64,000 bases of DNA from Thermoplasmata archaeon (lineage in GTDB: Archaea; Thermoplasmatota; Thermoplasmata; RBG-16-68-12; JAGMCJ01). The DNA is taken from positions 89,785-153,784 of the forward strand of contig JBHIFJ010000001.1 in NCBI GenBank assembly GCA_046761045.1, given 5' to 3'. The notes beneath the pieces are model-generated. The model was given only the letters and a program-made list of their open reading frames with translations. It did no database searches and was not told the DNA's origin. The position numbers were made by a program, and so were the translations under genes. Below, one piece after another: positions 1,303 through 57,380 of the stretch (position 1 is the first letter of the stretch; every line of letters begins with the position of its first letter).

Positions 1303-4300
1303 ATGGGAAATCTCATGAGAATTGTTTCGAGAGAAAATAGGAATAAGGGCCTGCGCTCGATTGCCCTCATGGCGTTGCTCGTTCTTGGGAGCATTCTAAT
1401 CATGGTATCGCCACAGACAAGAGCTGAGCTGAACCCGCCCGTTCAGGTAGGTCCAGATACTTGGGTGGTAGCAGCAGGTGATTGGGTCATAGAGAATGGT
1501 GACAATATTGTCCACGGAAACAAGACGATATATGTTGAAGCTGGCAACGTCGTGATTGAGAACGGCGGGGCACTGACACTCTACAATGTCACCCTGCAGC
1601 TGAACTCCACTTTCAGCGGGGAGTTCCACATAGAGGTCCAGGATGGCGGAACATTCAGGGTCCTCGACGGTGGAGATGGATACACGCCTTTTGACATGGC
1701 CGACACCGATCAGTCCACACTGCTGGGCAGTCCTTTTGAATTCCAATTTTGGGTGCGAGGTTCGGCGGTCTTTGAGATGAACAATAGCGTCATCGCATTC
1801 ATGGGCGAGACACACCCGCCAGGTCCGCCTCTTCCGACCCTCGAGCCCTACGGACTCTACGTTGAATCCGATAATGTCGTCATCAGAAGGTCGGGAGTCA
1901 TATTCAGTGGCGGAATCATCGCCAACGGGTCAAGCCCTAGGATATACGACTCTGTGTTTGTCATGGGCTGGTTCGGTGTTGCCTCGTTCAACGCTGGAAA
2001 CCCGTACGCGTCGAATCTGTCGGCCAATTCCCTCGAGTATGCGGGTGTCCTTGTCGATGCCTCCTCGATTGAAATCTATGACAGCCGGATTGATTCGACT
2101 GGAGTTGGAGCATTCTTGATGCCCGGGGTCCAATTGGTCAACGGCTCGTATGCATTGGTTTCCAACGTCTCAGTCTCAAACAACGGCAACGGAGGATTGG
2201 TCGTGGAGAACTCACACATTGACCTCTTCGATTCCAGGGTCACAAACAACGGTCCCTGGGGCCTGATCATGCTCGAAGACCAGTACAACCTGTTCACTTC
2301 TGTCGTGCGCAACAACACGTTCAGCCAGCATCCCAATACCGAGATAGTCCTGGATGCCTTTGGAGACTCCGATGTGGTTATAGAACACAACAACATCACC
2401 GCCGATCCTGGGGCGACAGGCATCTGGCTCTCCACAGATAACAACCTGACCGCCTCGCTTGGTTGGAACAATATCACAAGTGGCGACCAGGGCATTGTCG
2501 CAATGGCACAGGAAAACGCCACACTGAACCTCACCGGGAACTGGTTCGAGGGCCTCGCCACACAGGGAGTGCAGACCATCAATTTCGGAGACTGGCAGGA
2601 CCTTGTGGTTTTCAATAACACGTTCTTCAATCTTGGAGGCTTCGGCGGTTCCCACCTCAATCCCGTCGGGGAGCTGTCTGCCGATGTGCAGAGCAATAGC
2701 ATAATCCTGACGGGGGATGCTGGAATCATACTTGGAGCCGAAACACTGGTCACTGCGAATATTGCCGATAACTACGTCATGGCGACTGGAATGACCCCTT
2801 CCATGGCCCCAGCGGGTTTGATCACCTCTTCCAACGGAGACGCTTCTGTCGGCTTCCATGATAACCAGTTCTTTGCCACCTCTGACACTGCCATAATGGC
2901 GCTGGCCACGCGGGACCTGGACATCAATCTCTCATCGAACGCGTGTCTTTGGTGCTCCTCTGGGCCGACCTTCAGTGCCACATCGTTCGTGGCGACCTCG
3001 GGAGGCAATATGAGCGCCAATGTGTACAACAACTCGATAGACCTCACTGGTGCCGGGAACGGTATGAACTTCACTGCCAGCGGACAGTGGGCGACTCTGG
3101 ATTTCGTCGAGAACACGATAACCAACTCTCCTGACAGCGGTATTTACGTCGACCTTCTCTCGCAGTCGGATATTCTGTTCGATTCCAACGATGTCAGCTA
3201 CAATGGTGGGGCCGGTGTCTATGTCACCGTTTCTAACTATGCGAATGTCGTGGCGAGGGACAATCAGTTCTCCAGGAACGCTGTCTACGGACTGGGGATC
3301 GTTGGCGGTGGTCCATTACCGGTGAACCTGACCTTGGAGGACAACTACTTCGTGGCAGACGATGTCATCGGTCTTTGGCTGACCGATATCAACATAAGTT
3401 CCAGGGGGAACTATGTCATCGCATGCAACAACTTCGGCGCTGCCCTATTCCAGGTGGCGGGAACCATGGAGGATGAGGAGTACTCTTTCAACTCCAACGG
3501 CATAATCTTTGATGCAGGTTCACAGGTCGACCTGATAAACTCAACGCTCGACAATGCTGGAGTGGACATCTTCATAGACGGGGACTCTCACATCACTACG
3601 CTGAACACGACATTCGATCGTCTCTTCGGTCTGTTTTTCGGGGATATGCTTTCAAGCATCACGGTGAATTGGTTCCTTCATGTCCGTGTGGAGACCCAAC
3701 AGGCTGTACCTCTCGTGGGGGCCACTGTTGATGTGGAGGACTTCTACCAGACGCCCGTTGCGAGCCGCACAACCGGAGCAGACGGAATGGTGAGATGGAT
3801 GGTCGTGACCGAGTTCCATCTAGAGGGCTTCATATGGACCTACTACACGCCGCACAATATTACCGCGACTCTTGCAGGATTCGGAAGTGGCGTGGCTCAA
3901 CCCAACATGGATGCGACCAAGACGGTGGTCATTCAGCTTGCCGATGTCGAACCCCCTATGGCAGTGGCAAATGACGTGACCGTTGATGAGGACACCCTCT
4001 TCAATCTCGACAGCACGGGCAGTGGCGACAATGTGGCGATAGTGAACTGGACATGGGTCGTGAGTGATATTGGCGGTGATGTCTATCTGTACGGTCCGAA
4101 CCCGTTCTATATGTTCTCGGAGCCCGGAAGCTATGGGGTCAATCTCACGGTGACGGACGCCGCCGGGCTCTCTGGCTGGGACACAGCCACGATTACTGTG
4201 AACGACATCACGGATCCCATTGCGGACGCCGGACCAGATCAGGCGGTGTTCTCTGGGGACCAGGTGTTCTTCGATGGAACGAATTCGACGGACAACGTGG

Positions 4301-5340
4301 GCGTGGTGAACTACACATGGACTTTCACATACGACGGAGGACCGATCAACTTGTGGGGAGCGGCACCAAACTTCACCTTCGTGACTCCTGGCATCTACGA
4401 TGTCACCCTTACTGCTCGCGATGCCGCCGGCAATACTGGATCCGATGCGGTCACCATTACCGTCGAGGACAATGAGGCTCCCGTGGCAGATGCGGGACCT
4501 GACCAACTGAACAATGACGAGGGAACCACGATTTACTTCGATGGAACCGCTTCCACGGACAATGTTGGTATCGTTACCTTCAAATGGGAGTTTGACTACG
4601 GACCCAACCACATAGTCCTCGAGGGAGCAACGCAATCCTTCGTCTTTGAGGCGATTGGTGAGTACACGGTCACCTTGAAAGTAACCGACGGTGTTGGCCT
4701 CTCCGATACAGACACGATGGTCGTGTCCATTGTGGATTCCACTCCGCCAGAAGTCGTCTCGACCTCGCCACCGAATGGGGTGACCGACGTATCAATTGCC
4801 ACGGACTGCGTCATCGTGTTCAGTGAAGCCATGGATACCGATTCGACCGAGATGGCGATATCCATAGAGGGCGCGACGATTAAGAGCTTTGACTGGTCCA
4901 ATGGCGATTCCGTGCTTACTCTAGATCTCTCGGGACTGGAAGAGGACAAGGAGTACACCGTCATAATTGCCGATAACGCCACGGACGTTGAGGGCAATGA
5001 GATCAATGATTATGTTCTGACATTCAGGACCCAACCTCCACCCGCCCTCTTCTCCATGGAGAATGATTGGTGGTGGATCATAATAGTCATCATCCTGATA
5101 GTCGTGATAGCCATACTCGCCCTGAGGAAGCCGAAGGCCCCTGCGCCAACACCACAAGTATATGAGCCTGTGGCGTATGAGCCATCACCGCCGGCCGAGT
5201 ATCCTCTAGATGAACCGGACGAAGCTCCACCAGAGGAGCCACCGGATATGCCAGAGGAAGCTCCGGAGGAAGTGCCCGAACCTCCCGAGGGACCCCCGGA
5301 GGAGGAAGCTCCAGAACCGCCAGAAGAACCCGAGGAATAG
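1303..5340 (+). CDS. Giant secreted/cell-surface protein: signal peptide, parallel beta-helix (NosD/pectate-lyase-like) repeats, 3-4 PKD domains, Ig-like domain, C-terminal TM helix and acidic Pro/Glu-rich cytoplasmic tail
   Basis: 1345 aa; N-term hydrophobic segment ALMALLVLGSILIMVSP; repeated N-x-(I/V) beta-helix turns; PKD signatures (VNYTWTF..GxYxVTLTxxDxxG); TM WWWIIIVIILIVVIAILAL then RKPK and PEEAPEEVPEPPEGPPEEEAPEPPEEPEE. Confidence 0.8.
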   Translation: MGNLMRIVSRENRNKGLRSIALMALLVLGSILIMVSPQTRAELNPPVQVGPDTWVVAAGDWVIENGDNIVHGNKTIYVEAGNVVIENGGALTLYNVTLQLNSTFSGEFHIEVQDGGTFRVLDGGDGYTPFDMADTDQSTLLGSPFEFQFWVRGSAVFEMNNSVIAFMGETHPPGPPLPTLEPYGLYVESDNVVIRRSGVIFSGGIIANGSSPRIYDSVFVMGWFGVASFNAGNPYASNLSANSLEYAGVLVDASSIEIYDSRIDSTGVGAFLMPGVQLVNGSYALVSNVSVSNNGNGGLVVENSHIDLFDSRVTNNGPWGLIMLEDQYNLFTSVVRNNTFSQHPNTEIVLDAFGDSDVVIEHNNITADPGATGIWLSTDNNLTASLGWNNITSGDQGIVAMAQENATLNLTGNWFEGLATQGVQTINFGDWQDLVVFNNTFFNLGGFGGSHLNPVGELSADVQSNSIILTGDAGIILGAETLVTANIADNYVMATGMTPSMAPAGLITSSNGDASVGFHDNQFFATSDTAIMALATRDLDINLSSNACLWCSSGPTFSATSFVATSGGNMSANVYNNSIDLTGAGNGMNFTASGQWATLDFVENTITNSPDSGIYVDLLSQSDILFDSNDVSYNGGAGVYVTVSNYANVVARDNQFSRNAVYGLGIVGGGPLPVNLTLEDNYFVADDVIGLWLTDINISSRGNYVIACNNFGAALFQVAGTMEDEEYSFNSNGIIFDAGSQVDLINSTLDNAGVDIFIDGDSHITTLNTTFDRLFGLFFGDMLSSITVNWFLHVRVETQQAVPLVGATVDVEDFYQTPVASRTTGADGMVRWMVVTEFHLEGFIWTYYTPHNITATLAGFGSGVAQPNMDATKTVVIQLADVEPPMAVANDVTVDEDTLFNLDSTGSGDNVAIVNWTWVVSDIGGDVYLYGPNPFYMFSEPGSYGVNLTVTDAAGLSGWDTATITVNDITDPIADAGPDQAVFSGDQVFFDGTNSTDNVGVVNYTWTFTYDGGPINLWGAAPNFTFVTPGIYDVTLTARDAAGNTGSDAVTITVEDNEAPVADAGPDQLNNDEGTTIYFDGTASTDNVGIVTFKWEFDYGPNHIVLEGATQSFVFEAIGEYTVTLKVTDGVGLSDTDTMVVSIVDSTPPEVVSTSPPNGVTDVSIATDCVIVFSEAMDTDSTEMAISIEGATIKSFDWSNGDSVLTLDLSGLEEDKEYTVIIADNATDVEGNEINDYVLTFRTQPPPALFSMENDWWWIIIVIILIVVIAILALRKPKAPAPTPQVYEPVAYEPSPPAEYPLDEPDEAPPEEPPDMPEEAPEEVPEPPEGPPEEEAPEPPEEPEE

Positions 5341-17386: not shown

Positions 17387-17475
17387 GCCGCCGTAGCTTA
17401 GTCTGGTGGAGCTCCCGGCTGTTAATCGCCGAAGCAGAAACCGGAGGGTCACCGGTTCAAATCCGGTCGGCGGCG
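17387..17475 (+). tRNA. tRNA-Asn (anticodon GUU) with 15-nt intron (17425-17439) at canonical 37/38 position
   Basis: Manual fold: acceptor GCCGCCG/CGGCGGC, D-arm GCTT..GGAGC, anticodon stem CCCGG/CCGGA, loop CU-GUU-A, T-arm ACCGG-TTCAAAT-CCGGT; intron ATCGCCGAAGCAGAA. Confidence 0.8.
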
Positions 17476-17480
17476 CTCTC

Positions 17481-39972: not shown

Positions 39973-41370
39973 ATGAGGAAGAGAGAGGAGTTCAGCGAGT
40001 GGTACGACGAGGCGATTCAGAACGCTGACATCTGCGACAAGCGATACCCGATAAAGGGGATGAACGTCTGGACCCCCTACGGGTGGAAGATAATGACACT
40101 GATGGACTCCTTCATTCGTGATGAGCTGAACAGGACGAATCACGACGAGGTCCACTTCCCGGTCCTGATTCCGGAAGAGGAGTTCGCAAAGGAGGCCCAG
40201 CACATAAGGGGATTCGAGGAGGGCGTCTACTGGGTAACCCATGCTGGTCTCAACCCGCTCGACGTCCGTCTGCTCCTGAGGCCAACGAGCGAGACCGCTA
40301 TGTACCCGATGTTCTCGCTCTGGGTGAGGTCCCACGCGGACCTCCCGCTCAAGACATACCAGATAGTTGAGGTCTATCGATACGAGACCAAGCAGACGAG
40401 GACCTTGATCCGTGTCCGCGAGATCCACTTCTTCGAGTCGCACACATGCCATGCGACCTTCGAAGAGGCCGAGGAGCAGATACGAGAGGACCTCGAGATC
40501 ATGGACAACCTTGCCAAGACGTTCTGCATACCCTACTTGAAGATGAAGCGTCCCGACTGGGACAAGTTCGCGGGCGCACACTACTCTGTCGGGGTGGACT
40601 CGCTCATGCCGACTGGCAGAACGATGCAGAATGGTGGGATACATCAGTACCGCGATAATTTCTCACGGGCCTATGACATCAAGTACGAGGACGAGAAGGG
40701 CGAGCATCAATATGTCCACCAGACGACCTTCGGGCTTTCCGAGCGGCTCCTTGGAGGCATAGTCGCGCTTCACGGTGACGACAGAGGGATTGTCCTCCCG
40801 CCAGAGGTCGCACCGATCCAGGTCATCATTATCCCCATACCAGAGAAGGGAGCGCAGGAGGAGATTCTGGCGGGTGCCAGGGACATAGGCCTCCAGCTGG
40901 CGGGATGCGGAATCCGCTCCAAGACCGATGACCGCGATATCAGGCCCGGAGCGAAGTTCTATGAGTGGGAGCGCAAGGGCGTGCCCCTGAGGCTGGAGTT
41001 CGGCAGGAATGAGATGAAGGACGGAGCCGTAACGCTGGTCAGAAGACATGACATGAAGAAAGAGACGGCCTCCCGGACCGAGATGGTAGACGTCGTCCAG
41101 AGGAGCCTCAATGAGATTCAGAAGGACCTGTGGGAGCGGGCCTCGGAGGAACTTGCGCAGGGTATCCGCACAATCGAGAACCTGGGCGATGCGCGTACGG
41201 GGATAAATCGCGTGGGATGGTGCGGAGAGGAGTCCTGCGGGCACGAGATGGAGGATGTCACGGGGATGTCAGTGCTCGGAACGCTCTACGATGGCGAGGA
41301 ATTCAAGGGCAAATGCATCGTATGTGGCAACCCAACGAGGACAGCCGCATACCTGGCCAGGACATACTAG
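39973..41370 (+). CDS. proS: Prolyl-tRNA synthetase, archaeal/eukaryotic-type class II
   Basis: 465 aa; conserved class II motifs (..LRPTSET.., ..RVREIHFFE.., C-terminal Zn-binding CGxxxC..Y tail) typical of archaeal ProRS. Confidence 0.9.
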   Translation: MRKREEFSEWYDEAIQNADICDKRYPIKGMNVWTPYGWKIMTLMDSFIRDELNRTNHDEVHFPVLIPEEEFAKEAQHIRGFEEGVYWVTHAGLNPLDVRLLLRPTSETAMYPMFSLWVRSHADLPLKTYQIVEVYRYETKQTRTLIRVREIHFFESHTCHATFEEAEEQIREDLEIMDNLAKTFCIPYLKMKRPDWDKFAGAHYSVGVDSLMPTGRTMQNGGIHQYRDNFSRAYDIKYEDEKGEHQYVHQTTFGLSERLLGGIVALHGDDRGIVLPPEVAPIQVIIIPIPEKGAQEEILAGARDIGLQLAGCGIRSKTDDRDIRPGAKFYEWERKGVPLRLEFGRNEMKDGAVTLVRRHDMKKETASRTEMVDVVQRSLNEIQKDLWERASEELAQGIRTIENLGDARTGINRVGWCGEESCGHEMEDVTGMSVLGTLYDGEEFKGKCIVCGNPTRTAAYLARTY

Positions 41371-41570
41371 CGCTTCGAGTAGAGGAGTATGCCCACTATT
41401 CCGAATCCAACGAGAACGACGGTGAGGGCGTACACTCCTATGTTCTCGGGATGCGTGATGTCCCAGGTGTTGTAGATTATGCCCCACCCGATGTAGAAGA
41501 AGATGCCTAGGATTAGGAGAAAGGTGTAGAAGGCGACTGCGACCCTGCGGGGGAAGGTCTCCTCTTCCAT
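41367..41570 (-). CDS. Small membrane protein (2 TM)
   Basis: Start at MEEETFPRR; ORF-track extension rejected. Confidence 0.4.
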   Translation of the reverse strand: MEEETFPRRVAVAFYTFLLILGIFFYIGWGIIYNTWDITHPENIGVYALTVVLVGFGIVGILLYSKR

Positions 41571-41602
41571 CGGCGGGTAGAAGGTTGGCGTGGCTATAAA
41601 GG

Positions 41603-42424
41603 TTATTCCTTTGGCTTCCTGGGCCTCTGGAAGGTCTGTCTCCAGAGACCGCGGAAGCGCCTCCACCTGCGCTCCATCCAGGGCCAGGTTCCCGGGTTCT
41701 CCTCTAGGTAGAACATGAGGGCGAGGAACGCGAAGATGACGCTGAGGACGATCAGCAGGTAGAAGGGCCACATGGGGATGGGTTCCTTGACCCCGAAGCT
41801 CGAGTCCGGGATGATTCCGTCGACGCCGAGATACGTGAGACAGATATCACCCTTCGTCTCGTTCGCGTTGCAGTTCTCCACATTAGTATCGTTCGTCGCG
41901 TCTTCCCACTGCTTGTCGGTGAAGTAGCCCCTCGAGGCCATGACATAGTGTCCCGGCCCCGATTCATTTACGTAGTCAAACTCCAACCAGAAGCGGACGA
42001 AGTAGGCTCCTTGATCGAAGATCGTGCCCCGCGTCGTGTGCACGGATGTCATGATGTTCACAGTCAAGGTCCTAAAGTTGTCCCCTTCCAGAGTTCCGTT
42101 GATGTCGAAAGGCGGGAAGGTGAACTCCTGCTCCAGGTTGTTCTGTATGTAGGGCGTGTCCCAGCTCGAGTTCACGACCTTCTCGACGCTGGCGCTCTTG
42201 AACATGTAGATGCTCATGGTCAACGATACGTTCGTCATGTCGTTCTCGTTCTCGTTGACGACGTCGAAACTGAAGGGTCCCGACTCTCTGGGGGCGAGCT
42301 GGGGCGTGCTGAAGTTGGAGAGAAGCTTGTTCACCCGGTCCACTCTCGTCGGATCATCGGCTGCCGCTACGTGCGGAATTAGAAGCACAACTAGGAGCAA
42401 AAGCACGAGAGCCTGGAGGCGCAT
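41603..42424 (-). CDS. Secreted protein with signal peptide and C-terminal TM anchor
   Basis: MRLQALVLLLLVVLLIPHVAAA; C-term WPFYLLIVLSVIFAFLALMFYL + basic tail. Confidence 0.6.
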   Translation of the reverse strand: MRLQALVLLLLVVLLIPHVAAADDPTRVDRVNKLLSNFSTPQLAPRESGPFSFDVVNENENDMTNVSLTMSIYMFKSASVEKVVNSSWDTPYIQNNLEQEFTFPPFDINGTLEGDNFRTLTVNIMTSVHTTRGTIFDQGAYFVRFWLEFDYVNESGPGHYVMASRGYFTDKQWEDATNDTNVENCNANETKGDICLTYLGVDGIIPDSSFGVKEPIPMWPFYLLIVLSVIFAFLALMFYLEENPGTWPWMERRWRRFRGLWRQTFQRPRKPKE

Positions 42425-42519
42425 CTGAACTCGATAATATCTCTTTGCACAAATAGTTTTTGAAAGTGGGATCCGTCGGTGTCACGTTTAAATAGAAGAA
42501 GGGATGTGAGTGCTCGGCA

Positions 42520-43164
42520 ATGATGGACTTCGCCCTCTCGGCCTTTGCAGCGATATTCGCTATAGTCAATCCAGTGGGAAACCTCACGTTCTTCGTTGCA
42601 CTTACGGAGGGATACACCCAGGAACTCAAGAGGAAGGTCATAAACAAGGTCATACTGGTTGCCTCTGCAACGCTCCTGATCTTCGCGCTCGTGGGTAACT
42701 ACATATTCATGATATTTCAGACGTCCATTCCGGCCTTCAGAATTGCTGGCGGAATCCTCCTCTTCTCGATAGCCTTTGTCATGGCCTGGGGAGGCAGACC
42801 GGGCACAAAACTCACGGAGAGGGACAGGTCCGAGGCTCTCGAGATGGAAACGGTGGGGGCGGTTCCGCTTGGGATCCCCATGTTCGCGGGACCCGGGTCC
42901 ATCACGACGGTGATGGTGTTCATGGCCGAAGTCTCGTCACCCAATATGGACGTTGTCAAGGCTTCGGTGATACTTGCAGCCATCGTGGCAACGATGGCGG
43001 CCTCCTATGTCCTGCTTACTTACAGCGACAGGATTACGAGAAGTATGGGACGGATAGGCGCACTGGCATTCTCGAGGATAATGGGTCTCATACTCGCAGC
43101 GATCGCCGTGCAGATCATCTTGGTCGGCATATTCGGAGCCATGGACATGTACTACTTAGGATAG
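42520..43164 (+). CDS. MarC-family (UPF0056) integral membrane protein
   Basis: 214 aa; N-term FAAIFAIVNPVGNLTFF.. typical of MarC family. Confidence 0.8.
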   Translation: MMDFALSAFAAIFAIVNPVGNLTFFVALTEGYTQELKRKVINKVILVASATLLIFALVGNYIFMIFQTSIPAFRIAGGILLFSIAFVMAWGGRPGTKLTERDRSEALEMETVGAVPLGIPMFAGPGSITTVMVFMAEVSSPNMDVVKASVILAAIVATMAASYVLLTYSDRITRSMGRIGALAFSRIMGLILAAIAVQIILVGIFGAMDMYYLG

Positions 43165-43257
43165 CGGGGCCGAGTTCACAAGCTCAGTCCCTGCCCTGGG
43201 GGGACCAGCACGCTTCTGACGGGCGATCCCTGAAGGCGAGACGGCAATCCTATATCA

Positions 43258-44295
43258 GTGAATCCTGATTCCCGTGCTGTGCGTGCGTTTCGCGTGGCTC
43301 GTGAGGCAGCAGAGGAGGCTAGGCTGCTCCTGCAAGAAATCGGAGCAATGGACAGGACGAAGAGGATAGTTGAGCGGGAGGGTGCCGTGATGATACCTCT
43401 CCTGAGCACGGTCGTGGAACTTCCCGAACTTCCAGGGAAGATCGTGGAGGTGCCTTCGGTTCCGCTCAAAAAGGAACAGGAGACCCCATTCAGCATCATC
43501 GCGCGCAGTCTCGACATTCCAGTTTCTGCCAAGGCAAGGCTACCACGAAAATGGGAACTCATCGGAGACATTCTGATTCTGAAGCTCGATCCATCGCTCT
43601 CCGAATATGAACGGGAAATCGCGGAGGTCTACGCGAACGTTCTGGGAGCGAAGTCCGTCCTTGAAGACATTGGCGGCATCGGCGGGGAGTTCAGAGAGCC
43701 CAAGCTGAGGCTAATCTCGGGAAGTGATACGACGACCGTTCACAAGGAGAACGACGTGCTCTTTAGGCTGGATGTCACGAAGGTCATGTTTTCCTCTGGG
43801 AACATCCACGAACGGATAAGGATGGCGAGGATCTGTCAGCCAGGCGAGACAGTCGTGGATATGTTTGCGGGCATCGGGTACTTCTCGTTGCCAATCGCAG
43901 TTCACTCCAACCCGAGAAAGGTCTACGCTTGCGAGATCAATCCAACGGCTTTCGAATATCTGGAGGAGACTATCCGGTTGAATCGAGTCGATACTGTCAG
44001 ACCGCTCTTCGGTGACTGCAGGGACATTGCGCCTGAGGGGGTCGCTGACAGGGTTATCATGGGTTATCTCTGGGGGCAGGAATACTTGGGGAAGGCGATG
44101 AGAGTGGTGTGCGAGAAGGGGCTCATCCACTATCACGAGGCATGTCATAGAGAAGATGTCTTGACCCGTCCAGCGGAATCGGTGAAGTCAGCGGGACGGA
44201 GAGAGGGACGCCGTGTGCGAATTCTGGCGACCAGGAGGATTAAATCCTATTCTCCGAACACCTACCACGTCGTCGTGGATGCTGATGTGGAGTGA
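43258..44295 (+). CDS. Trm5/Taw2 (Met-10+) family class I SAM-dependent tRNA methyltransferase (likely tRNA m1G37 methyltransferase)
   Basis: VVDMFAGIGYFSLPIA...VYACEINPTAFEYLEE..IRLN motifs. Confidence 0.75.
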   Translation: MNPDSRAVRAFRVAREAAEEARLLLQEIGAMDRTKRIVEREGAVMIPLLSTVVELPELPGKIVEVPSVPLKKEQETPFSIIARSLDIPVSAKARLPRKWELIGDILILKLDPSLSEYEREIAEVYANVLGAKSVLEDIGGIGGEFREPKLRLISGSDTTTVHKENDVLFRLDVTKVMFSSGNIHERIRMARICQPGETVVDMFAGIGYFSLPIAVHSNPRKVYACEINPTAFEYLEETIRLNRVDTVRPLFGDCRDIAPEGVADRVIMGYLWGQEYLGKAMRVVCEKGLIHYHEACHREDVLTRPAESVKSAGRREGRRVRILATRRIKSYSPNTYHVVVDADVE

Positions 44296-44379
44296 CTTCC
44301 CCAATCCTTCGTCTTACCTCCATCCCAAAGGCTCTGGGGTAACGTTCAACTACCGTTGACGTATCCAATATCTTGAGGT

Positions 44380-44796
44380 TTGAACCAAGGAAATGGCATC
44401 ACCGTGGCGAAGAAAATACCATCATCATGCGGGAACTTCTCTGACCTGGACATTGCAGTACCAGGCCCTGTCAGCGCAGGGTCTATGGTCGTCGTGTCCG
44501 TGACGGTCTACATAGGGATTTACCACGAGGCGGGGGTGTATGACCACCTGTCCATGTTCATCGCACTGTCTACCACGAACTGCACGGCCTATCCAGGTCA
44601 CCTTGGAACCAACGTACCCGCTCAACACCCGACATGGTACTACTATTCCACCTCCACCTTTCAGAGGGCTTTCTACTTCGACACAGGTTTCACAAACCCA
44701 GTGACGTTCTACGTGAACGGGTACATGGGGGCTGGCTGGGACAATGCTGACCGCTTGGTGGTGGCAAACTCAGTCGCTGTGGTCTACCCGGGCTGA
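44380..44796 (+). CDS. Hypothetical protein
   Basis: ORF only; weak. Confidence 0.25.
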   Translation: MNQGNGITVAKKIPSSCGNFSDLDIAVPGPVSAGSMVVVSVTVYIGIYHEAGVYDHLSMFIALSTTNCTAYPGHLGTNVPAQHPTWYYYSTSTFQRAFYFDTGFTNPVTFYVNGYMGAGWDNADRLVVANSVAVVYPG

Positions 44797-44801
44797 TTGC
44801 A

Positions 44802-46361
44802 TCAACCCTCCAGCGCATGGAAACGCTGGATGGAATGCCCGCTGGCGGTTAACAACCTCCTCAGGGCGGCATCGTATTCTTCTGGCTTGGCGGTCAGCAG
44901 TGCCTCAGCGGCGGACTTTAGGTGAACACCGAATCCACGCTCGTCCTCCGTATACTGCCAGTCAAACCCCGTCTCGTTGAGGGCGAGGAGGAACGCGTAC
45001 TCTAGGGCCTTGAAGGCCTTTGACCTTGTGGTGTCTTTCCGCACCTCCATCGCTGCCGCCGCTGGACCACCCGTTCTATAGACTCTCGCGATGCGATCGC
45101 AGAACCTGGCGACCGGAGACAACTTCCTGTACTTTGGAAGGTCGGACAGGATTCTCTCCTTCTGCGCGGTCTGGAAGGCTTGCCGCACGAACTGTGACGG
45201 CGACTCCTGCGAGGAGAGCGACCTCTCGTAGAACTCGTTGGCTGCGTCTTCATCCCCGAGGACTGCCTTGAGGGCCTCCAGACCTGCCTCCTGCCAGTAC
45301 GTGTCCAGGACCTTGGCGGGGGACGCCTCGTCCAGGATGACGTTCTCGCCGAGGTTCTTCACCATGGCCCTGAGTGCCTCCCGCTCGATCTTGTTCGGTC
45401 TAAGCGACTCGATGAAGGCATCGGAATCGTCGTCGAAGCAGTTCATCCCCACGGCGAACACCCGTCTCTCCATCGCGATACCCTCCTCCCTCACGTCCTT
45501 CATGTGGTTGTCGATGAGCTCCCTGTCCGAGACACGCCCGCTCATGTACTCGGACCTCCAGCGGTCGCTCACCTCCGTGAGCGTATTGAGTGGGCAGTCC
45601 TCACCGCCGCTGGCGTGCCTGAATCCTGGCTGGACCCGCACATCCAGTATCTTGGCTCTCTCCGGATGGAGCATCCTGTTCAGTATGACGCTCGCGATGT
45701 TCCGCTTCGTGCTAGACCTGAGGCGGGAGACCTTGAGCGAGATGCCGGCGGGAATCCAGCGGACCTCTATGAAGGTGTCGTCCACAGAGTCCAAGGCGGC
45801 GTAGCCACCCTCGGTCTTCTGAAAGGGATACCTCATCCTGCCGATGGTCTCTGTCACATACTCCTCCGGTGGCTTCCCGATCGTCCCCGTGCAGACCATC
45901 TTGTCCTTCGTGCTGAATATGAATAGCCCGTTCCTGCGCGCGATGTCCGCCACGGCCAGTAGTCTTGCATCCGGGTCGTCGTAGTGCTGGAATCCTATTA
46001 GCAGCTCCTTCTTCGCCTTGCCACGTTGCGCGTACGCGATGTCCTTGTTGCCTACCCTCGCAACCGCCAGATAGGGCGCCTTCTCCTGGATTGCGAGTAG
46101 CAATGTGGCAGCGTATGCTTTTGAGAAGGCAGGCCCGAGGTTGGCGAGCCCGCTCAGTTTCTTCTTGTTATCCTTGAACCTCAGTTGCTTGAGCAGCCTT
46201 GCCCTCCACTTCTCAAACGGACACTTCCTGCATTCCCCCTCACATTCTGGAATGAGGGGGTCTGGCCCGTCGCGAAGCTTCTTCGCCCTCGCGATGAGCT
46301 CCCTTTCCTTCTTCTTGGCGGCCGCCCTGGCCTTCATGCGTACCGTGCTCCGCTGCCTCAT
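44802..46361 (-). CDS. Conserved hypothetical protein (519 aa) with N-terminal basic region and Cys cluster (CEGECRKCP)
   Basis: Long protein-like ORF, no P-loop or other recognisable catalytic motif. Confidence 0.6.
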   Translation of the reverse strand: MRQRSTVRMKARAAAKKKERELIARAKKLRDGPDPLIPECEGECRKCPFEKWRARLLKQLRFKDNKKKLSGLANLGPAFSKAYAATLLLAIQEKAPYLAVARVGNKDIAYAQRGKAKKELLIGFQHYDDPDARLLAVADIARRNGLFIFSTKDKMVCTGTIGKPPEEYVTETIGRMRYPFQKTEGGYAALDSVDDTFIEVRWIPAGISLKVSRLRSSTKRNIASVILNRMLHPERAKILDVRVQPGFRHASGGEDCPLNTLTEVSDRWRSEYMSGRVSDRELIDNHMKDVREEGIAMERRVFAVGMNCFDDDSDAFIESLRPNKIEREALRAMVKNLGENVILDEASPAKVLDTYWQEAGLEALKAVLGDEDAANEFYERSLSSQESPSQFVRQAFQTAQKERILSDLPKYRKLSPVARFCDRIARVYRTGGPAAAAMEVRKDTTRSKAFKALEYAFLLALNETGFDWQYTEDERGFGVHLKSAAEALLTAKPEEYDAALRRLLTASGHSIQRFHALEG

Positions 46362-46462
46362 CCCTGTTCAATACGGGAGCCGCCAATTAACTCTTTCGCA
46401 GCGGACCAGTTAGCCCGCTCTCGAAAACTCTTTAGGAGCGTCCGAGATTATGTCTCGATATC

Positions 46463-46723
46463 ATGTATTGCCCAAAATGCGGAGCTGAGGTCGAGGAGAA
46501 GGCAACCTACTGTCCTCGCTGCGGACACCGAATCAAGCCGAAATCAGGGAAGTTCGTGGACGACGCTGGACGAATCACAGGTGAGGCCATAGAGGGTGCT
46601 GTGGACCTCACGGAGAAGGCCTATGAGAAGACGAAGCCCGTCGTCAAAAGCGCAGCGAAGAAGACGAAGGGGCTCGTGAAAGGTGTCGCCAAGAAGCTCA
46701 AGGGGGACGAAGAAAAGTCTTAA
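46463..46723 (+). CDS. Small zinc-ribbon protein with Lys-rich tail
   Basis: MYCPKCGAEVEEKATYCPRCG. Confidence 0.5.
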   Translation: MYCPKCGAEVEEKATYCPRCGHRIKPKSGKFVDDAGRITGEAIEGAVDLTEKAYEKTKPVVKSAAKKTKGLVKGVAKKLKGDEEKS

Positions 46724-46736
46724 ATCGACCTGACTC

Positions 46737-47792
46737 TTGCACCGTAGCATGGCCGGTTCCAGGTTCGACCTCATTGCGAGGGGAGCGGAAGAGGTAGTCA
46801 CGGAGGAGGAGCTAGCTGCACTCCTCGACGGGAAGGAAAGGATACGCTCCTACGTTGGCTTCGAACCGTCTGGCCTGATGCACATCGGTCAGGGCTTCGT
46901 CATTGCCCGCAAGGTCGTGGACTTCTCCGAGGCTGGGCTGGACACGATCATATTGCTGGCGGACTGGCATGCATACATCAACGACAAGCTCGGCGGGAAC
47001 CTGGACAGCATCAAGCTGTGCGGGGACTACGTGCGGGACTGCTTCATCGCGCTGGGCGTGGACCCAGGCAAGACCGAGTTCCTTTTCGCACACGACCTCG
47101 TGGGCAGGCGGGAGTACTGGCAGAAGGTGCTATCCATATCCAAGAATGCCACCGTCTCGCGAATGAGGAGGGCCATGACGATTATGGGGCGAAAAGAGGA
47201 GGACGCCGACATCGATGCCTCCAAGCTCATCTATCCCGCGATGCAGGCCGCTGACATAGTCGAGCTGGACCTCGACATCGCGCTAGGGGGTATGGACCAG
47301 AGGCACGCACATATGCTCCTGCGGGATGTGGCAGACAGGATTGGTGCGAGAAAGCCCGTGGCCGTGCACACGCCACTGCTATCCGGACTGCAAGGTGGCG
47401 GGAGGATGGACTCCTTCGAGGGCAAGATGAGTAAGTCAAGGCCAGAGACATTCATATCGATTCACGAGGAGCCTGATGTGGTTGAGCGGAAGATCGGGAA
47501 GGCGTTCTGCCCTGAGGGTGATGTTCAGGACAATCCTGTGCTTGAGATCTGCAGGCTGATTGTCTTCCCCGAGATCGAGGAGTTCAAGGTCGAGCGGGAG
47601 GAGAAGTTCGGCGGGGATGTTGTTTTCGCCAGCTATGAGGAGCTCGCAGAGGCGTTCGCAGCCAGGGAGCTGCATCCTAGTGATTTGAAGACAGCCACGA
47701 TACGGTATCTCAACGAGGTCCTAGAGCCCATCCGGAAGTACTTCGAGATGAATCCAGACAACTACGAGAAGATGATTGAGCTGACATCGTAG
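46737..47792 (+). CDS. tyrS: Tyrosyl-tRNA synthetase (archaeal-type class I)
   Basis: GFEPSGLMHIG (HIGH-like), LLADWHAYIN, KMSKS. Confidence 0.85.
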   Translation: MHRSMAGSRFDLIARGAEEVVTEEELAALLDGKERIRSYVGFEPSGLMHIGQGFVIARKVVDFSEAGLDTIILLADWHAYINDKLGGNLDSIKLCGDYVRDCFIALGVDPGKTEFLFAHDLVGRREYWQKVLSISKNATVSRMRRAMTIMGRKEEDADIDASKLIYPAMQAADIVELDLDIALGGMDQRHAHMLLRDVADRIGARKPVAVHTPLLSGLQGGGRMDSFEGKMSKSRPETFISIHEEPDVVERKIGKAFCPEGDVQDNPVLEICRLIVFPEIEEFKVEREEKFGGDVVFASYEELAEAFAARELHPSDLKTATIRYLNEVLEPIRKYFEMNPDNYEKMIELTS

Positions 47793-47800
47793 TGAGCGCG

Positions 47801-48520
47801 ATGGACAAGGATGAGATTCGCCAGATGATCTGGGACGTGATGGAGGGGAAGGACATCGCTCTTTTCCCTCGCCCAGTCCACGGACGTATTCCCAACTTCA
47901 AGGGTGCGGACGCAGCCGCAAGGAAGATGGAGCAGCTGGACATTTGGCGTGAAGCGAGATTCGTGAAGTGCAATCCAGACAGCCCGCAGAGGCCCGTCAG
48001 GGAGGCAGCTCTTCAGAGCGGCAAGACGATCTATATGGCCGTCCCCCGCTTGAGGGAGGAGAAGTGCTTCATCCGAGTGGACCCTGACTATGCGGGGTCG
48101 CCGCGAAAAGCATCGACGATACGAGGCGCGTTCAGGTACGGAAGGGCCGTCCACCCCCATGAGATGAACCCAGTCGACCTGGTTGTCGCGGGCTCTGTTG
48201 CCGTGGACCGAGCGGGCGGAAGGGTCGGAAAGGGTGGCGGCTACTCTGATCTGGAATACGCTCTTGGGCGGGAATTCAGCATTCTCGATGAGGATGCGCC
48301 AATCGTGACCACCGTCCATCCGATTCAGGTCTTGGACATAGACATTCCCATGCTGGAGCACGATGTGCCGATTGACTTCATAGTTACGAGAAGGTACACA
48401 ATCGAGTGCAGGAGGAGGGGGAAGCCACGGGGAATCCTCTGGGAGAAGCTCGGTGAGGAGATGCTTGAGAGCATTCCTATTCTGAAGATCCTGTCGAAAT
48501 CGCGAAAAGGCTTTATGTGA
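47801..48520 (+). CDS. 5-formyltetrahydrofolate cyclo-ligase family protein
   Basis: ..GKGGGYSD..LDEDAPIVTTVHP.. MTHFS-family pattern; ORF-track start 47792 is GTG overlapping tyrS stop; ATG 47801 preferred. Confidence 0.7.
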   Translation: MDKDEIRQMIWDVMEGKDIALFPRPVHGRIPNFKGADAAARKMEQLDIWREARFVKCNPDSPQRPVREAALQSGKTIYMAVPRLREEKCFIRVDPDYAGSPRKASTIRGAFRYGRAVHPHEMNPVDLVVAGSVAVDRAGGRVGKGGGYSDLEYALGREFSILDEDAPIVTTVHPIQVLDIDIPMLEHDVPIDFIVTRRYTIECRRRGKPRGILWEKLGEEMLESIPILKILSKSRKGFM

Positions 48521-48537
48521 GCGGGTCGTTGTTGATA

Positions 48538-48824
48538 CGCCAGGAGACCGTGGACGGCTGACGGTGCCTCCGGGTGCTGAGGAAAGTCCCCCCTCCTACA
48601 AAAGGTGGACTGGTGCAAGCCAGTTGTCCGAGAGGGCAGGCAAGGGCGCAGAAACGACACAGCCGCTGGACAACGCGATGATTCGTTCGGCGATGAGGTC
48701 TCCAGCGGATCTGGTGAGACGGCGACTCCCCACCGGAGCAAGTCCAAATTAGCAGGTAGGACGCTTAGTCGAATGCCGTCGGAACAGAAGGGGGCTTACG
48801 GCGGTGACCTGGCAACTCCTGCGT
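48538..48824 (+). ncRNA. rnpB: RNase P RNA (archaeal type)
   Basis: GAGGAAAGUCCCCCCUCC (CR-I/P4), GAGAGGGCAG, CUCCCCACCGGAGCAAGUCCAAAUUAGCAGG, GGAACAGAAGGGGGCUUACGG (CR-V ACAGAAnnnGGCUUA); terminal P1 CAGGAG/CUCCUG; ends approximate. Confidence 0.8.
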
Positions 48825-49365
48825 CCTCATCGGGCAGATTCCATTCTCCGACCTGCTTCAATATGCGCTGCAGTCGGTTCAAATAGGGGTCTGCAGTGTG
48901 ATTGCGGATCACCTGACTGGAATGCAACCTTCCTATCATTCTCCCACGGCAAGAACTTCAATCCCTTCGTGCCCATTAGGCAGGACTGCGCTCGGTGGGA
49001 TTGCCGGGCACCTATGTTTCCTAAAAGGCGAGTGAATCCGGACTCCTTCTGAAAAAGAGCACATCGGTCGTTTCTATGCAAACACATCCACGAGGTAGTG
49101 CGTAGAGTGCGTGAGGGGGCCATGTGAACGGAAGGGCCTGTGTGGCGACTGCAGTCGCGGCTATCGCAGTCCTCCCAAGTGCTGGCTCGCAGTTCATGGA
49201 CGGAAATGCCGATGACAGAGCCCGAGACGAGATATGATTCACAGCCATTCCAGCGCTCCCCGTGCCTCATCGCCACGATACTCTCGCGATCGGTACTCTT
49301 GCACCGGTGAGGATGGTAAATCACCTTGCGACTAAGACGGGCCCAAAGCGTCAGGAGGGGCGAAC

Positions 49366-50151
49366 TCAGAACCTCCTGTGCTCCCCGTGACCCGGCCTCA
49401 GGCACGCGCCGTGAGTGCAGGTGTCGAAGAACTCGTATACGATCTCCGGAACGCCCAGCTCTACGGGAAGACCGAATCCTTTGATGACATCATGCGAGAT
49501 GGGCTCGTCGTGCGAGATATAGCCTCCCGTCAGGTACTCAGCGAGGCTCTTGGCCTCCTTGGCCTTCATCCTACGCTTTAGAAGCCATCGCACGAAGTTC
49601 TGGACCTCGGAGATCGACAATCTCGCGATGTCCGCAAGAACAATGGTCTTATCGTCGATCGCCTGAATAGGCTTCCTCTCAAGAATGGAGACGAGCGAGT
49701 TCGACGGAAGTCCGTCTATCTGCGGGTCGAGCGGGCCCATGACGCTAAAGCGCTCCATTCTTATCTCGTCAGCAGCGAGCGCTATCATTGTCCCGCCAGA
49801 CATCGCATAGAAGGGGACATGCACTGTCACCTTCCCCTTGTGCATCTTCAATGCGATAGCGATCATCTGAGCCGCCAGGGCAATCCCCCCGGGTGTGTGA
49901 AGGATGAGTTCAACGGGCTGTTTCTTGCCAGCTCGCTTGATGTTCAGAAGGACCTTTTCCGAGTCCTCGATTTCGATCTCGGGATAGCCCTCCCCCTTGA
50001 CCCAAGGCTCCTTTCTATGAACCATCGTGACGACTTTCGAGCCCCTCTCCTTTTCCATCCTCGCTATGATTCGCTCCCTTCTGGCGAGGATTTGATTCCT
50101 CAGCTCCTCTCTCCAGCTCCATTCTCGGTCATCCTTGTTCGTATTTTTCAC
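49366..50151 (-). CDS. SDH-family (ClpP/crotonase-fold) serine protease
   Basis: ELILHTPGG...FYAMSGGTMIALAADE motifs; GTG start 50151 overlaps stop of upstream MFS gene (GTGA) with GAGGAG just upstream; ORF-track N-terminal 284 codons rejected. Confidence 0.65.
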   Translation of the reverse strand: MKNTNKDDREWSWREELRNQILARRERIIARMEKERGSKVVTMVHRKEPWVKGEGYPEIEIEDSEKVLLNIKRAGKKQPVELILHTPGGIALAAQMIAIALKMHKGKVTVHVPFYAMSGGTMIALAADEIRMERFSVMGPLDPQIDGLPSNSLVSILERKPIQAIDDKTIVLADIARLSISEVQNFVRWLLKRRMKAKEAKSLAEYLTGGYISHDEPISHDVIKGFGLPVELGVPEIVYEFFDTCTHGACLRPGHGEHRRF

Positions 50152-51248
50152 CTCCTCTTGAGTCCGACCAAAGGGACGATGAGTAGCGATACGCCCGCAA
50201 CGACGAGGGTCGCCTGAACACTCACGAATAGAGTGAGAAGCAGGCAAAGGAACGCTCCCAGCGTCCTCCCTGCATTCAGTGTAAGCTCTCTCACCATTAT
50301 AGCATTTTGCGACGAGGCTGCCCTGTCCATCGCGAGGGCGAAGAGGAAGATCGGAAGGAGTGGCAGAAAGAAGTATATGACGCCGATTGTGATGCCAAAC
50401 GCGACGAGATTGGAAACGAAGGCTGCAAGGAGCAGAAGAGGTCCGCAGATCAGAGCAGCCAGATTGATGAAGAGCATCCTGTTGCCCTTCCTGTCTGAGA
50501 GCTTTCCAGCAACAACCGACATGACGCCGCCAGCGACGCCAATGGCCGCGAGTATCTTGCCCAGTTCGAACTCCTCTCCCACGAAAAGGAAGGTCGCAAG
50601 GGGGATTGCGATTGTGAAGACGCCTTCTTGTATGCCCTCTAGGAAGAAGCCAGCCGAGGTGTATGATTTCACCTCCGTGCGCTGCACCCTCGGCGTGTAC
50701 TTCCTCGCGAACTTCCTCCAAGTGAGGAGCACGAGTGTCGAGGTCACTATCAAAAGGATCAATGCAACAGAGAACAGGACATCGTACCCAAGGTTCTGAA
50801 TGGTTGCACCGCCCGCGAGCGGGCCGAGGAAGTAGACGATTGGGAATACGAGGAAGGATACGCTGATGATGAGGCCCCTGTTCTTGGCGGTGGTCAAGTC
50901 GATCATCGCTATACTGAGGGGTATCCAGAAGAGGACGACAGATAGGGCTATGAGCACCGGAACAGCGTTGAGGAGTGCGTGTCCCGACAGGAACAGGAAA
51001 CATCCGAACGAGACTCCAAGAAGAATCAGGCCGAGTGTCATCGAGACGTCTGCTCTGGGGAATCTCGTCCTCGAAAAAACGAGCACCAGAAGGGTTGCCA
51101 GCAGGTATTCGAGCAGGTAGAGCCAGGCGGCCTGCTGGATGCTATAGCCCTCCCTGATCAGGAAAACGAGAGAGAAGGAGCCTGCAAAGAACCAGGCAAG
51201 GACAAGGATTGCCTCATATGTCAACAATCGTGCTAGCTTTCCGAGCAC
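50148..51248 (-). CDS. MFS-type transporter
   Basis: 366 aa, ~11-12 TM, MFS motif A GKLSDRKGNR. Confidence 0.7.
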   Translation of the reverse strand: MLGKLARLLTYEAILVLAWFFAGSFSLVFLIREGYSIQQAAWLYLLEYLLATLLVLVFSRTRFPRADVSMTLGLILLGVSFGCFLFLSGHALLNAVPVLIALSVVLFWIPLSIAMIDLTTAKNRGLIISVSFLVFPIVYFLGPLAGGATIQNLGYDVLFSVALILLIVTSTLVLLTWRKFARKYTPRVQRTEVKSYTSAGFFLEGIQEGVFTIAIPLATFLFVGEEFELGKILAAIGVAGGVMSVVAGKLSDRKGNRMLFINLAALICGPLLLLAAFVSNLVAFGITIGVIYFFLPLLPIFLFALAMDRAASSQNAIMVRELTLNAGRTLGAFLCLLLTLFVSVQATLVVAGVSLLIVPLVGLKRR

Positions 51249-56163: not shown

Positions 56164-56838
56164 CTATCGTCGAGACAGATCGCGCTCGACAGATACCGCC
56201 CTCGCGGCCATCCTCTCGGTCACCACTCTTTTCGCAAGGTCGTAGAACGCCCTCTCCACGTTGTCCCCCGTCTTCGCGCTGGCACGTATGCATGAGGTGC
56301 CATCGCTGAGAACGGACCAACCAGGTTCTGGCGTGGCGCTCTCAATCTCCGACTTGTTGATTACAACCTGAATCGGGACGTCACCAACGAGATCCTTGAC
56401 CACGGCAATCCAGTCTCCCACGCTTGCTATGGTCTTGTCATCCGTGGCATCGCAGACGGCGAGGACACCCTGCGTTCCATACAGATAGTCGCGCTTGAGG
56501 ATGGAATCCTTGCCTCTCATGCCGGCGATGTCCCATAGGATCATGTCGACCCTGATTTCCGCTCCGTTCCAAGGAATGACGAGGGTCTTCTTGGCTATCT
56601 TGGCACCAACCGTCTTGAGGTACTCGTCGTCGAACTGGTCCTTGACGTACCGGCGAACCAGGCTGGTCTTGCCTACGGCAGGATCACCCACCAAACATAT
56701 CTTCAGCTTGATAATCAGATTTTCCGGCGTGTCTCTCCCTCTTGCTGGTCGATTCTCCACTCCAAGGCCGTTCGCGTAAACCGGAACCACCCTGGAAATC
56801 TCCTTATGGATATTTAAATCTGGCGGTTTGATGTTCAT
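56164..56838 (-). CDS. Ras-superfamily small GTPase (paralog of 35062-35652)
   Basis: G1 GDPAVGKTS, WDIAGMRGK, NKSE, ASAKTG; ATG (rc 56836-56838) overlaps TAA of upstream gene (TAATG). Confidence 0.85.
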   Translation of the reverse strand: MNIKPPDLNIHKEISRVVPVYANGLGVENRPARGRDTPENLIIKLKICLVGDPAVGKTSLVRRYVKDQFDDEYLKTVGAKIAKKTLVIPWNGAEIRVDMILWDIAGMRGKDSILKRDYLYGTQGVLAVCDATDDKTIASVGDWIAVVKDLVGDVPIQVVINKSEIESATPEPGWSVLSDGTSCIRASAKTGDNVERAFYDLAKRVVTERMAARAVSVERDLSRR

Positions 56839-57380
56839 TACGCATAGCCCAGACCGAGCCCTTCCTTGAAGATAGTCCTGTCTAGACTCCTTCTTAGCTT
56901 GGCGTCCAGCAGCCTCTGCTTTTCTGAGAGCTGCCCTTTCCAGCCGAATTGGAGAGGCCCCTGGATCATCCCTGGAGAGTCTATCTCGCTCAGTCGCTTG
57001 GGCTCTGTGCTCAGCACACTGTCTATCGCATGCGTGAACTCTTCCCGCTCGAACTCCCCTCCGAGGAATCTGTCCAGGATGTCCGAAGGCAATGGTCTGA
57101 ATCCATAACCGGGCAAGGAAGCCGAGGCGACCTTGCGGGCCTCTGTCCTTCCTCCGATTCTGGCACCTATTGCTTTCGGATTCGGTCTGTAGAGACTGTC
57201 GACCTTTATCTGCCACAGCTCGTCCTCGGTTGAGATGAGGAAGTCTGAGTATCCTGACTTGCTCTCCTTGACGAGGACGGACCAGCCCTTTGGGTTCCTC
57301 TCGTACTTGTCGGCCAGCCTCTTCAGAATCTCTTCTCTGGTTCTGATCTCTGCCATGCCTCTGGAATATATTGAACTCAA
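56838..57380 (-). CDS. Hypothetical 180-aa protein translationally coupled upstream of small GTPase (candidate GTPase partner)
   Basis: Protein-like ORF; no recognisable family by eye. Confidence 0.55.
   Translation of the reverse strand: MSSIYSRGMAEIRTREEILKRLADKYERNPKGWSVLVKESKSGYSDFLISTEDELWQIKVDSLYRPNPKAIGARIGGRTEARKVASASLPGYGFRPLPSDILDRFLGGEFEREEFTHAIDSVLSTEPKRLSEIDSPGMIQGPLQFGWKGQLSEKQRLLDAKLRRSLDRTIFKEGLGLGYA

Follow-up and report, generated by a model that had tools for sequence, protein, structure and literature searches.

A type A-like archaeal RNase P RNA gene without the P16/P17 arm in an uncultured Thermoplasmata archaeon

The window, by which we mean the whole 64-kb stretch of DNA that was analysed, almost certainly carries at 48539-48813 on its plus strand the archaeal RNase P RNA (RPR) gene of an uncultured Thermoplasmata archaeon, a gene that ORF calling had missed. 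The RNA is best described as a type A molecule that has lost P16, P17 and P6 and retains L15. RNase P, a universal enzyme, trims tRNAs at their 5' ends, and in archaea the complex contains Pop5, Rpp30, Rpp21, Rpp29 and L7Ae, which would be the probable partners of the RNA here. By homology, the RNA would provide the catalytic core of a ribonucleoprotein by which pre-tRNAs lose their 5' leader through Mg2+-dependent hydrolysis. An essential and universally expected non-coding RNA was absent from the gene track, where three false ORFs had been drawn instead. The value of the result is mainly one of annotation, since the correction does away with hypothetical proteins and settles the limits of the gene and of its promoter. 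The RNA itself is a typical representative of a family that is well known; it would not surprise a specialist, and it opens no new question.

Identification and extent of the gene

Scanning of the 64-kb window against Rfam 15, with the gathering scores as thresholds, gave three matches, two to tRNAs and one to RF00373 (RNaseP_arch). The latter lies at 48542-48810 (+), scores 202.8 bits (gathering score 84; E=6e-59), and spans model positions 1-288 of 288, and is therefore not truncated. RF00373 is also the best clan member for this RNA, and a more permissive Rfam scan of 48300-49600 returned nothing else credible and no competing family. The RPR would be a single-copy gene; a plasmid collection searched with the RNase P RNA gave no match.

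The sequence-only reading had proposed an RNase P RNA gene here from four sequence blocks in canonical order, and had named the Rfam archaeal model as the check; the very strong, full-length match, far beyond chance, bears it out, as does the canonical structure supported by covariation (below). All four blocks were found in that order between 48579 and 48798, namely GAGGAAAGUCC...CUCC (48579-48596), AGGGCAG (48633-48639), CCACCGGAGCAAGUCCAAAU (48730-48749) and ACAGAAGGGGGCUUA (48784-48798, CR-V). In an alignment of the window RNA with 67 relatives (alignment A1, 68 sequences), conserved regions CR-I to CR-V occur in order and are invariant or nearly so, their members including GAGGAAAGUCC at 48579-89, AGAAACGA in J11/12, GAGACG in J12/11, AGUCGAAU in J15/2 and ACAGAAGGGGGCUUA at 48784-98.

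The 5' boundary is marked by GCCAGGAG and the 3' boundary by CCUGGC, both conserved in the 68 sequences, and the flanks diverge immediately outside them, which sets the RNA at 48539-48813, or about 275 nt. This is shorter than the 287 nt (48538-48824) first proposed, an extent that had included a terminal P1 pairing of CAGGAG with CUCCUG. Both hexamers exist, at 48541-46 and 48816-21, but their pairing is no better than chance: 63.7% of cells pair in the 68 sequences versus 57.7-65.7% in slid controls, no change on both sides is seen in those sequences, and CUCCUG sits in the non-conserved 3' flank. This pairing was rejected as P1, and the earlier 3' boundary was accordingly about 10 nt too far downstream.

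Relatives of the RNA

Relatives were collected by scanning the genomes of species representatives with a pattern running from J5/15 through P15 and J15/2 to CR-V, which gave at least 119 loci, and by scanning metagenomes with a pattern from J11/12 to P10/11, which gave at least 120 contigs; an earlier metagenome scan with a clade-specific P15/L15 pattern had given 0 matches. Among the matches listed, the closest are L034 (RS_14_3) and L039 (RS_17_1), both MAGs labelled Thermoplasmata archaeon, at 93-94% identity, and the next are L089 (a Methanomassiliicoccales MAG) and L111 (a complete MAG chromosome, CP070767.1), both at about 79%. Identity falls to about 76% for L108 and L110 and is 77-80% for around 60 distinct metagenome sequences, again among the matches listed. 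The RNAs of the closest relatives score 197-215 bits in Rfam. Lower scores, of 145-148 bits, are seen for the more distant Thermoplasmata RNAs L108 (5006-5302) and L110 (6484-6784), in which an additional hairpin (about 20-25 nt) separates P5 from P7 and P3 is longer; P16 is absent from both as well.

The window is collinear with L034 over 41200-48814 (76-81% nucleotide identity) and with L039 over 45734-48812 (84.5%). Together with the intron-containing tRNA-Asn, this indicates that the window comes from an uncultured Thermoplasmata lineage. The tRNA genes of the window include:

17387-17476 (+), tRNA-Asn(GTT), with a 16-nt intron adjoining the anticodon
21861-21934, tRNA-Met

Secondary structure and covariation

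All helices of the catalytic (P1-P5, P15) and specificity (P7-P12) domains were located from the Rfam alignment and the 68-sequence alignment. Features of the RNA are as follows.

48539-48813 (+), RNase P RNA gene (RPR), 275 nt, bounded by the outermost paired bases of P1
48539-48552 (+), 5' strand of P1, pairing with 48799-48813 by complementarity
48553-48558 (+), 5' strand of P2, GACGGC, pairing with GCCGUC at 48775-48780
48562-48579 (+), P3 hairpin of 7 bp with loop UCCG
48579-48592 (+), CR-I, GAGGAAAGUCCCCC, including the 5' strand of P4 (48584-86 and 48588-92, with U48587 bulged)
48593-48596 (+), 5' strand of P5, CUCC, pairing with GGAG at 48735-48738; invariant and 100% paired
48604-48608 (+), 5' strand of P7, GGUGG, pairing with CCACC at 48730-48734
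48609-48624 (+), P8 hairpin of 5 bp (48609-13 with 48620-24) with a GCAA loop
48625-48638 (+), P9 hairpin of 5 bp with a GAGA tetraloop
48639-48729 (+), P10/P11/P12 arm of the specificity domain, helices from alignment A1
48639-40 with 48728-29 (+), P10
48646-47 with 48722-23 (+), P11
48648-59 (+), J11/12, GCAGAAACGACA, conserved
48660-70 with 48701-13 (+), P12, with a tip helix of 48683-85 with 48691-93
48714-21 (+), J12/11, GUGAGACG, conserved
48742-48762 (+), P15, GUCC/GGAC, 4 bp (48742-45 with 48759-62), from the Rfam alignment and alignment A1
48763-48774 (+), J15/2, GCUUAGUCGAAU, the CR-IV region, from the Rfam alignment; near-invariant in alignment A1
48790-48797 (+), 3' partner of P4, inside CR-V (ACAGAAGGGGGCUUA, 48784-48798)

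When the Rfam-derived helices, the extended P1 and P4 were projected on alignment A1, 98.6% of 5098 cells formed standard pairs, versus 36.4-49.1% with the 3' partners slid by 1-3 columns, and 26 of the 75 pairs changed on both sides, versus 1-7 in the slid controls. None of 500 shuffles reached any of the five measures. At least one compensated pair is present in each of P2, P3, P7, P12 and P15.

P1 of the window is made up of GCCAGG/CCUGGC, an A/GA internal loop with a G.G mismatch, ACCG/CGGU and UG/CG; across the alignment it is 95.4% paired and shows C-G to G-C and A-U to G-C changes, with L108 and L110 having their own versions (AAGG/CCUU and GAAAG/CUUUC). The 6 bp of P2 are 100% paired, with A-U replaced by G-C in six sequences, and P3 is 98.9% paired, with two pairs changed on both sides. 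Inability to form the P4 pseudoknot had been named as grounds for giving up the RNase P assignment; P4 does form, with 8 bp that are 100% paired, and it covaries, a C-G/A-U swap being present in 19 of the 68 sequences. Of the 68, 49 combine GAGGAACGUCC in CR-I with GGGGGCGUAC in CR-V and are mostly soil or sediment metagenome contigs; the combination amounts to a compensated A-U to C-G change at alignment A1 columns 60 and 297 (48585 and 48796), within the normally highly conserved P4.

Three pairs of P7, four of the five pairs of P8 (100% paired) and three pairs of P9 (97.1% paired) change on both sides; P8 and P9 covary strongly. P12 is 98.5% paired, with seven pairs changed on both sides, and its tip helix has U-A replaced by C-G in 26 sequences, while P15 is 100% paired, with U-A replaced by G-C in four. 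P5, P10 and P11 never vary in the alignment and are uninformative, and for the register of P11 we followed the Rfam model, in which two positions of that helix are marked as non-canonical. For 48538-48824, the minimum-free-energy fold is no better than those of shuffled sequences (z=-0.34), so thermodynamics alone gives no support; a poor value of this kind is to be expected of an RNA that is pseudoknotted and depends on proteins, and it carries no weight.

In functional terms, the catalytic domain consists of P1-P5 and P15 together with CR-I, CR-IV and CR-V, and its active site would lie at the P4 pseudoknot. The specificity domain consists of P7-P12, whose J11/12 and J12/11 modules would read the tRNA elbow. 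Both domains are complete. There is no unassigned sequence in the 48539-48813 RNA long enough for the bacterial P13, P14 or P18. P12 contains a K-turn-like motif, in which a GAU bulge (48677-79) is followed by G48680.A48696 and A48681.G48695, all four of these bases being invariant in the 68 sequences. By analogy with the RPRs of P. furiosus and Methanococcus (PMC5499556), this motif would be a K-turn and an L7Ae site; the double K-turn described in that study is not apparent in P12 of the window RNA.

Overlapping open reading frames

Three ORFs overlap the gene, and all are at the positions from which the sequence-only reading had dismissed them as artefacts.

48325-48747 (-), spurious ORF of 140 aa, antisense to the RNA, to the putative promoter and to the upstream gene at its 3' end
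48564-48752 (+), spurious ORF of 62 aa, inside the RNA gene
48605-48886 (+), spurious ORF of 93 aa, running out of the RNA gene

They are artefacts and not genes, the certainty being slightly lower for the one on the minus strand. It is scarcely conceivable that the locus is protein-coding, with at least one of the three being a real small gene and the resemblance to RNase P RNA secondary. All three frames are open in the window, and that of 48325-48747 (-) is stop-free over the aligned part in 50 of the 67 relatives, where the stop test is weak and the dismissal less secure. However, none of the three has a Pfam match, and no frame shows a third-position excess of substitutions across the 67 relatives, that is, no codon periodicity. 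The plus-strand frames are broken by stops in most relatives (60 of 67 for 48564-48752 and 62 of 67 for 48605-48886), and in 35 of the 67 the length of 48564-48752 differs by a number of nucleotides that three does not divide. The minus-strand ORF crosses, on the opposite strand, 196 nt of a real gene (47792-48520), and nothing else speaks for it. The variation in the region instead tracks base-pair covariation, and the 203-bit covariance-model match covers it.

Loss of the P16/P17 arm and retention of L15

The sole large departure from RF00373 is found beyond P15, where the Rfam alignment has 3 nt in place of 27 distal model positions. P15 is closed by a 13-nt loop, AAAUUAGCAGGUA (48746-58), that joins both L15 strands directly, without P16/P17. 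The AA (48746-47) and GGU (G48755, G48756, U48757) of L15 are invariant in 68 of 68 sequences, and GGU lies in a hairpin loop, not in an internal loop. With the arm gone, P6 has no partner strand, and inspection of the P15 loop found no complement to J5/7 (UACAAAA) that could serve as one; the KT1 K-turn of P16-17 is necessarily absent as well. The architecture is that of archaeal type A with one reduction, in which deletion of the P16/P17 arm took the P6 partner strand with it; the two conserved L15 strands, AA... and ...GGU, are united in the P15 hairpin loop. The short length had led the sequence-only reading to suspect a reduced helix complement and to single out P8, P9 and P15-16 for checking: the suspicion was right only for the P16/P17 arm and, with it, P6, while P8, P9 and P15 proved to be present.

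Relatives display the loss in a graded form. The arrangement in most of the metagenome relatives is GUCC-AAGCA-[GGCGC-loop-GCGCC]-AGGUA-GGAC, which comprises P15, L15 as an internal loop and a P16 hairpin of 5 bp. L034 and L039 have just AGC-GAAA-GCA between the L15 strands (a stem of 2-3 bp with a GAAA loop), and there is no P16 at all in the window, L089, L111, L108 and L110. We suggest tentatively, as a possibility rather than a favoured conclusion, that this Thermoplasmata lineage keeps successive steps in the loss of P16, P17 and P6, with AA...GGU of L15 and P8 retained, and so represents a natural intermediate between type A and type M. If this were true, the L7Ae site of the C-domain (KT1) and P6 would be dispensable, and L15 would still be under selection, even though the tRNA genes of the window do not encode CCA. 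In bacteria, GGU of L15 pairs with the CCA of tRNA. The tRNA-Asn and tRNA-Met genes of the window are without an encoded 3'-CCA, so that the retained GGU may play no part in CCA pairing of the bacterial kind. For comparison among RPRs, the graded loss of P16 with L15 kept is a minor point and adds a little to the known structural plasticity of archaeal RPRs. It could guide the design of minimal RPRs, or the study of which peripheral elements are replaced by archaeal proteins.

Comparison with known RNase P RNA types

In common with type A RNAs (RF00373; Methanothermobacter thermautotrophicus, Pyrococcus furiosus), the window RNA has CR-I to CR-V, P4, P1-P5, P7-P12 and P15, P8 and P9 with GNRA loops, AA...GGU in L15 and a K-turn-like motif in P12; it is likewise without the bacterial P13/P14/P18, and its covariance-model match is full length. 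Unlike them, it is without P16/P17, the P6 partner and KT1, the K-turn that is the L7Ae site in P16-17 of the P. furiosus RPR (PMC5499556). Its L15 forms a hairpin loop where theirs is internal, its P12 is short and has apparently one K-turn-like motif instead of a double K-turn, and its length of about 275 nt falls below the 288 positions of the model.

It is unlikely that the molecule is a type M RPR of the Methanococcales/Archaeoglobus kind and not a reduced type A, although the choice between the two names is a labelling question, and the alignment places the RNA with type A-like Thermoplasmata sequences. Type M RNAs are defined as having no P8, P16 or P6 and no substrate-recognition loop in P15 (PMC4919922). 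P16, P17 and P6 are absent here as they are there, and P15 ends in a simple hairpin as in classical type M (Methanococcales, Archaeoglobus fulgidus), but the window RNA has P8 and, with its L15 sequence and GGU retained, apparently the P15 loop as well, and the presence of P8 excludes the classical form. A P8-retaining type M variant has been described in the Archaeoglobaceae, where the RNAs of Archaeoglobus profundus, A. veneficus and Ferroglobus placidus keep P8 and are without L15, P16, P17 and P6 (Chan et al. 2012; PMC3579882). This resembles the window RNA in having P8 and no P16/P17/P6, and differs from it in L15, which the window retains in invariant form, including the GGU that type M is without, and in lineage, since the window belongs to the Thermoplasmata, where the loss is visibly recent and graded among relatives. 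P8 of the window RNA also covaries, and a P16 stem persists between the same L15 strands in close relatives, from which it follows that the window form derives from type A within the lineage. The reduced type A description is retained on these grounds.

A P8-containing form without P16 has already been published, and a hairpin P15 occurs in other archaeal phyla. RNAs with a hairpin P15 like that of the window were found in ANME-1/Methanophagales (L084, L117) and Micrarchaeota (L022, L015, L079, L100). They are RF00373 members scoring 106.9-201.5 bits, with just 10-15 nt between J5/15 and J15/2, and can be shorter than the window RNA (259 nt in L084 and 239 nt in L022). Unlike it, several, such as L084 and those of Micrarchaeota, are without GGU, and the lineages are unrelated, so these are independent reductions. 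By the Rfam scores of the matches listed, hairpin-P15 RNAs also occur in other uncultured archaea. Their presence in several archaeal groups indicates that reduction of the P16/P17 arm is recurrent and falls within the known range of the family.

In type T RNAs the specificity domain is almost entirely missing and P2 has 3 bp. Assignment to this type (Rfam RF02357, Thermoproteaceae), which is described as being without most of the specificity domain (PMC3579882), was rejected, since P7-P12 are complete, P2 has 6 bp and the best clan member is RF00373.

Putative promoter and integrity of the gene

48503-48517 (+), putative archaeal promoter, with purine-rich, BRE-like CGAAAAG at 48503-09 and TATA-like CTTTATG at 48511-17

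In the 67 relatives, an A/T-rich box is found at -28..-24 from the conserved 5' G, with an AT fraction of 0.75-0.97 versus about 0.1-0.4 at most other positions. An archaeal TATA element would be expected here for a transcript whose 5' end is approximately the first base of P1. Judged from sequence, CGAAAAG and CTTTATG would represent the BRE/TATA promoter of the RPR gene, and transcription would most likely start from it at, or a few nt from, the mature 5' end. This putative promoter and the end of the upstream gene (its last codons and its stop TGA, 48518-20) overlap, so that promoter and coding sequence share bases. At the other end, most relatives have a pyrimidine- or T-rich tract no more than 10 nt downstream of the RPR, and no oligo-T terminator was found after the gene in the window.

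Want of a clear terminator, the missing P16/P17/P6 and the G.G mismatch in P1 could all suggest a decaying, non-functional pseudogene, with the working enzyme (a second RPR or the protein-only HARP) encoded elsewhere in a genome of which 64 kb are in view. This is very improbable. All of the conserved regions are intact, the Rfam score is as high as the 197-215 bits of relatives, and the form without P16 has been kept in the diverged genomes L089, L111, L108 and L110. The compensatory substitutions between relatives point to purifying selection on the structure of the RPR. In addition, the promoter box is conserved, and synteny with the orthologous gene is preserved in L034 and L039. The gene thus appears to be genuine and functional.

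Neighbouring genes and the 3' flank

Upstream of the RPR are genes for a class I Tyr/Trp-tRNA synthetase (46737-47792) and a protein of the 5-formyltetrahydrofolate cyclo-ligase family (47792-48520), and downstream, on the opposite strand, are those for an SDH-type ClpP-like protease and an MFS transporter. The stretch of about 550 nt from the 3' end of the RPR to the next gene (48815-49365) has no convincing ORF, no Rfam match at E<=1, and no tblastn match in the 239 fetched loci.

Homology with L034 ends exactly at 48814, and the contig of L039 ends at the 3' end of the RPR. An element integrated at the 3' end of the RPR was considered for the downstream DNA of the window and rejected, there being no repeat of the 3' end in the window and no integrase or mobile-element domain in the downstream ORFs (MFS, CARDB, Ras/Roc, M28 peptidase). 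In the relative L111, the last part of the RNase P RNA is present a second time, as a 43-nt copy that has the orientation of the intact gene and is situated 1.64 kb downstream of it (3251-3293 and 4929-5202 of CP070767.1), and 29 nt of the copy are identical to L111's own gene. Between gene and copy are a PNP_UDP_1 phosphorylase ORF and a 160-aa ORF, on DNA that is missing from the close relative L089; no integrase was seen. The repeat resembles what would be left behind by DNA inserted into the gene at its 3' end, and, to judge from this relative, the 3' end of the RPR gene may serve as an insertion site.

Two of the downstream ORFs deserve comment. That at 49366-51003 (-), of 545 aa, is over-extended: its SDH-type serine protease domain takes up residues 302-527 only, and the composition of its 5' part, which overlaps the ORF of the MFS transporter at 50148-51248 (-), is unlike that of a protein. 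The real start is probably internal, near 50200. The ORF at 56164-57216 (-), of 350 aa, has a C-terminal small GTPase domain of the Ras/Roc family (PF00071, 8e-23; PF08477, 4e-22), and its neighbours specify a CARDB-domain protein and a large M28 peptidase.
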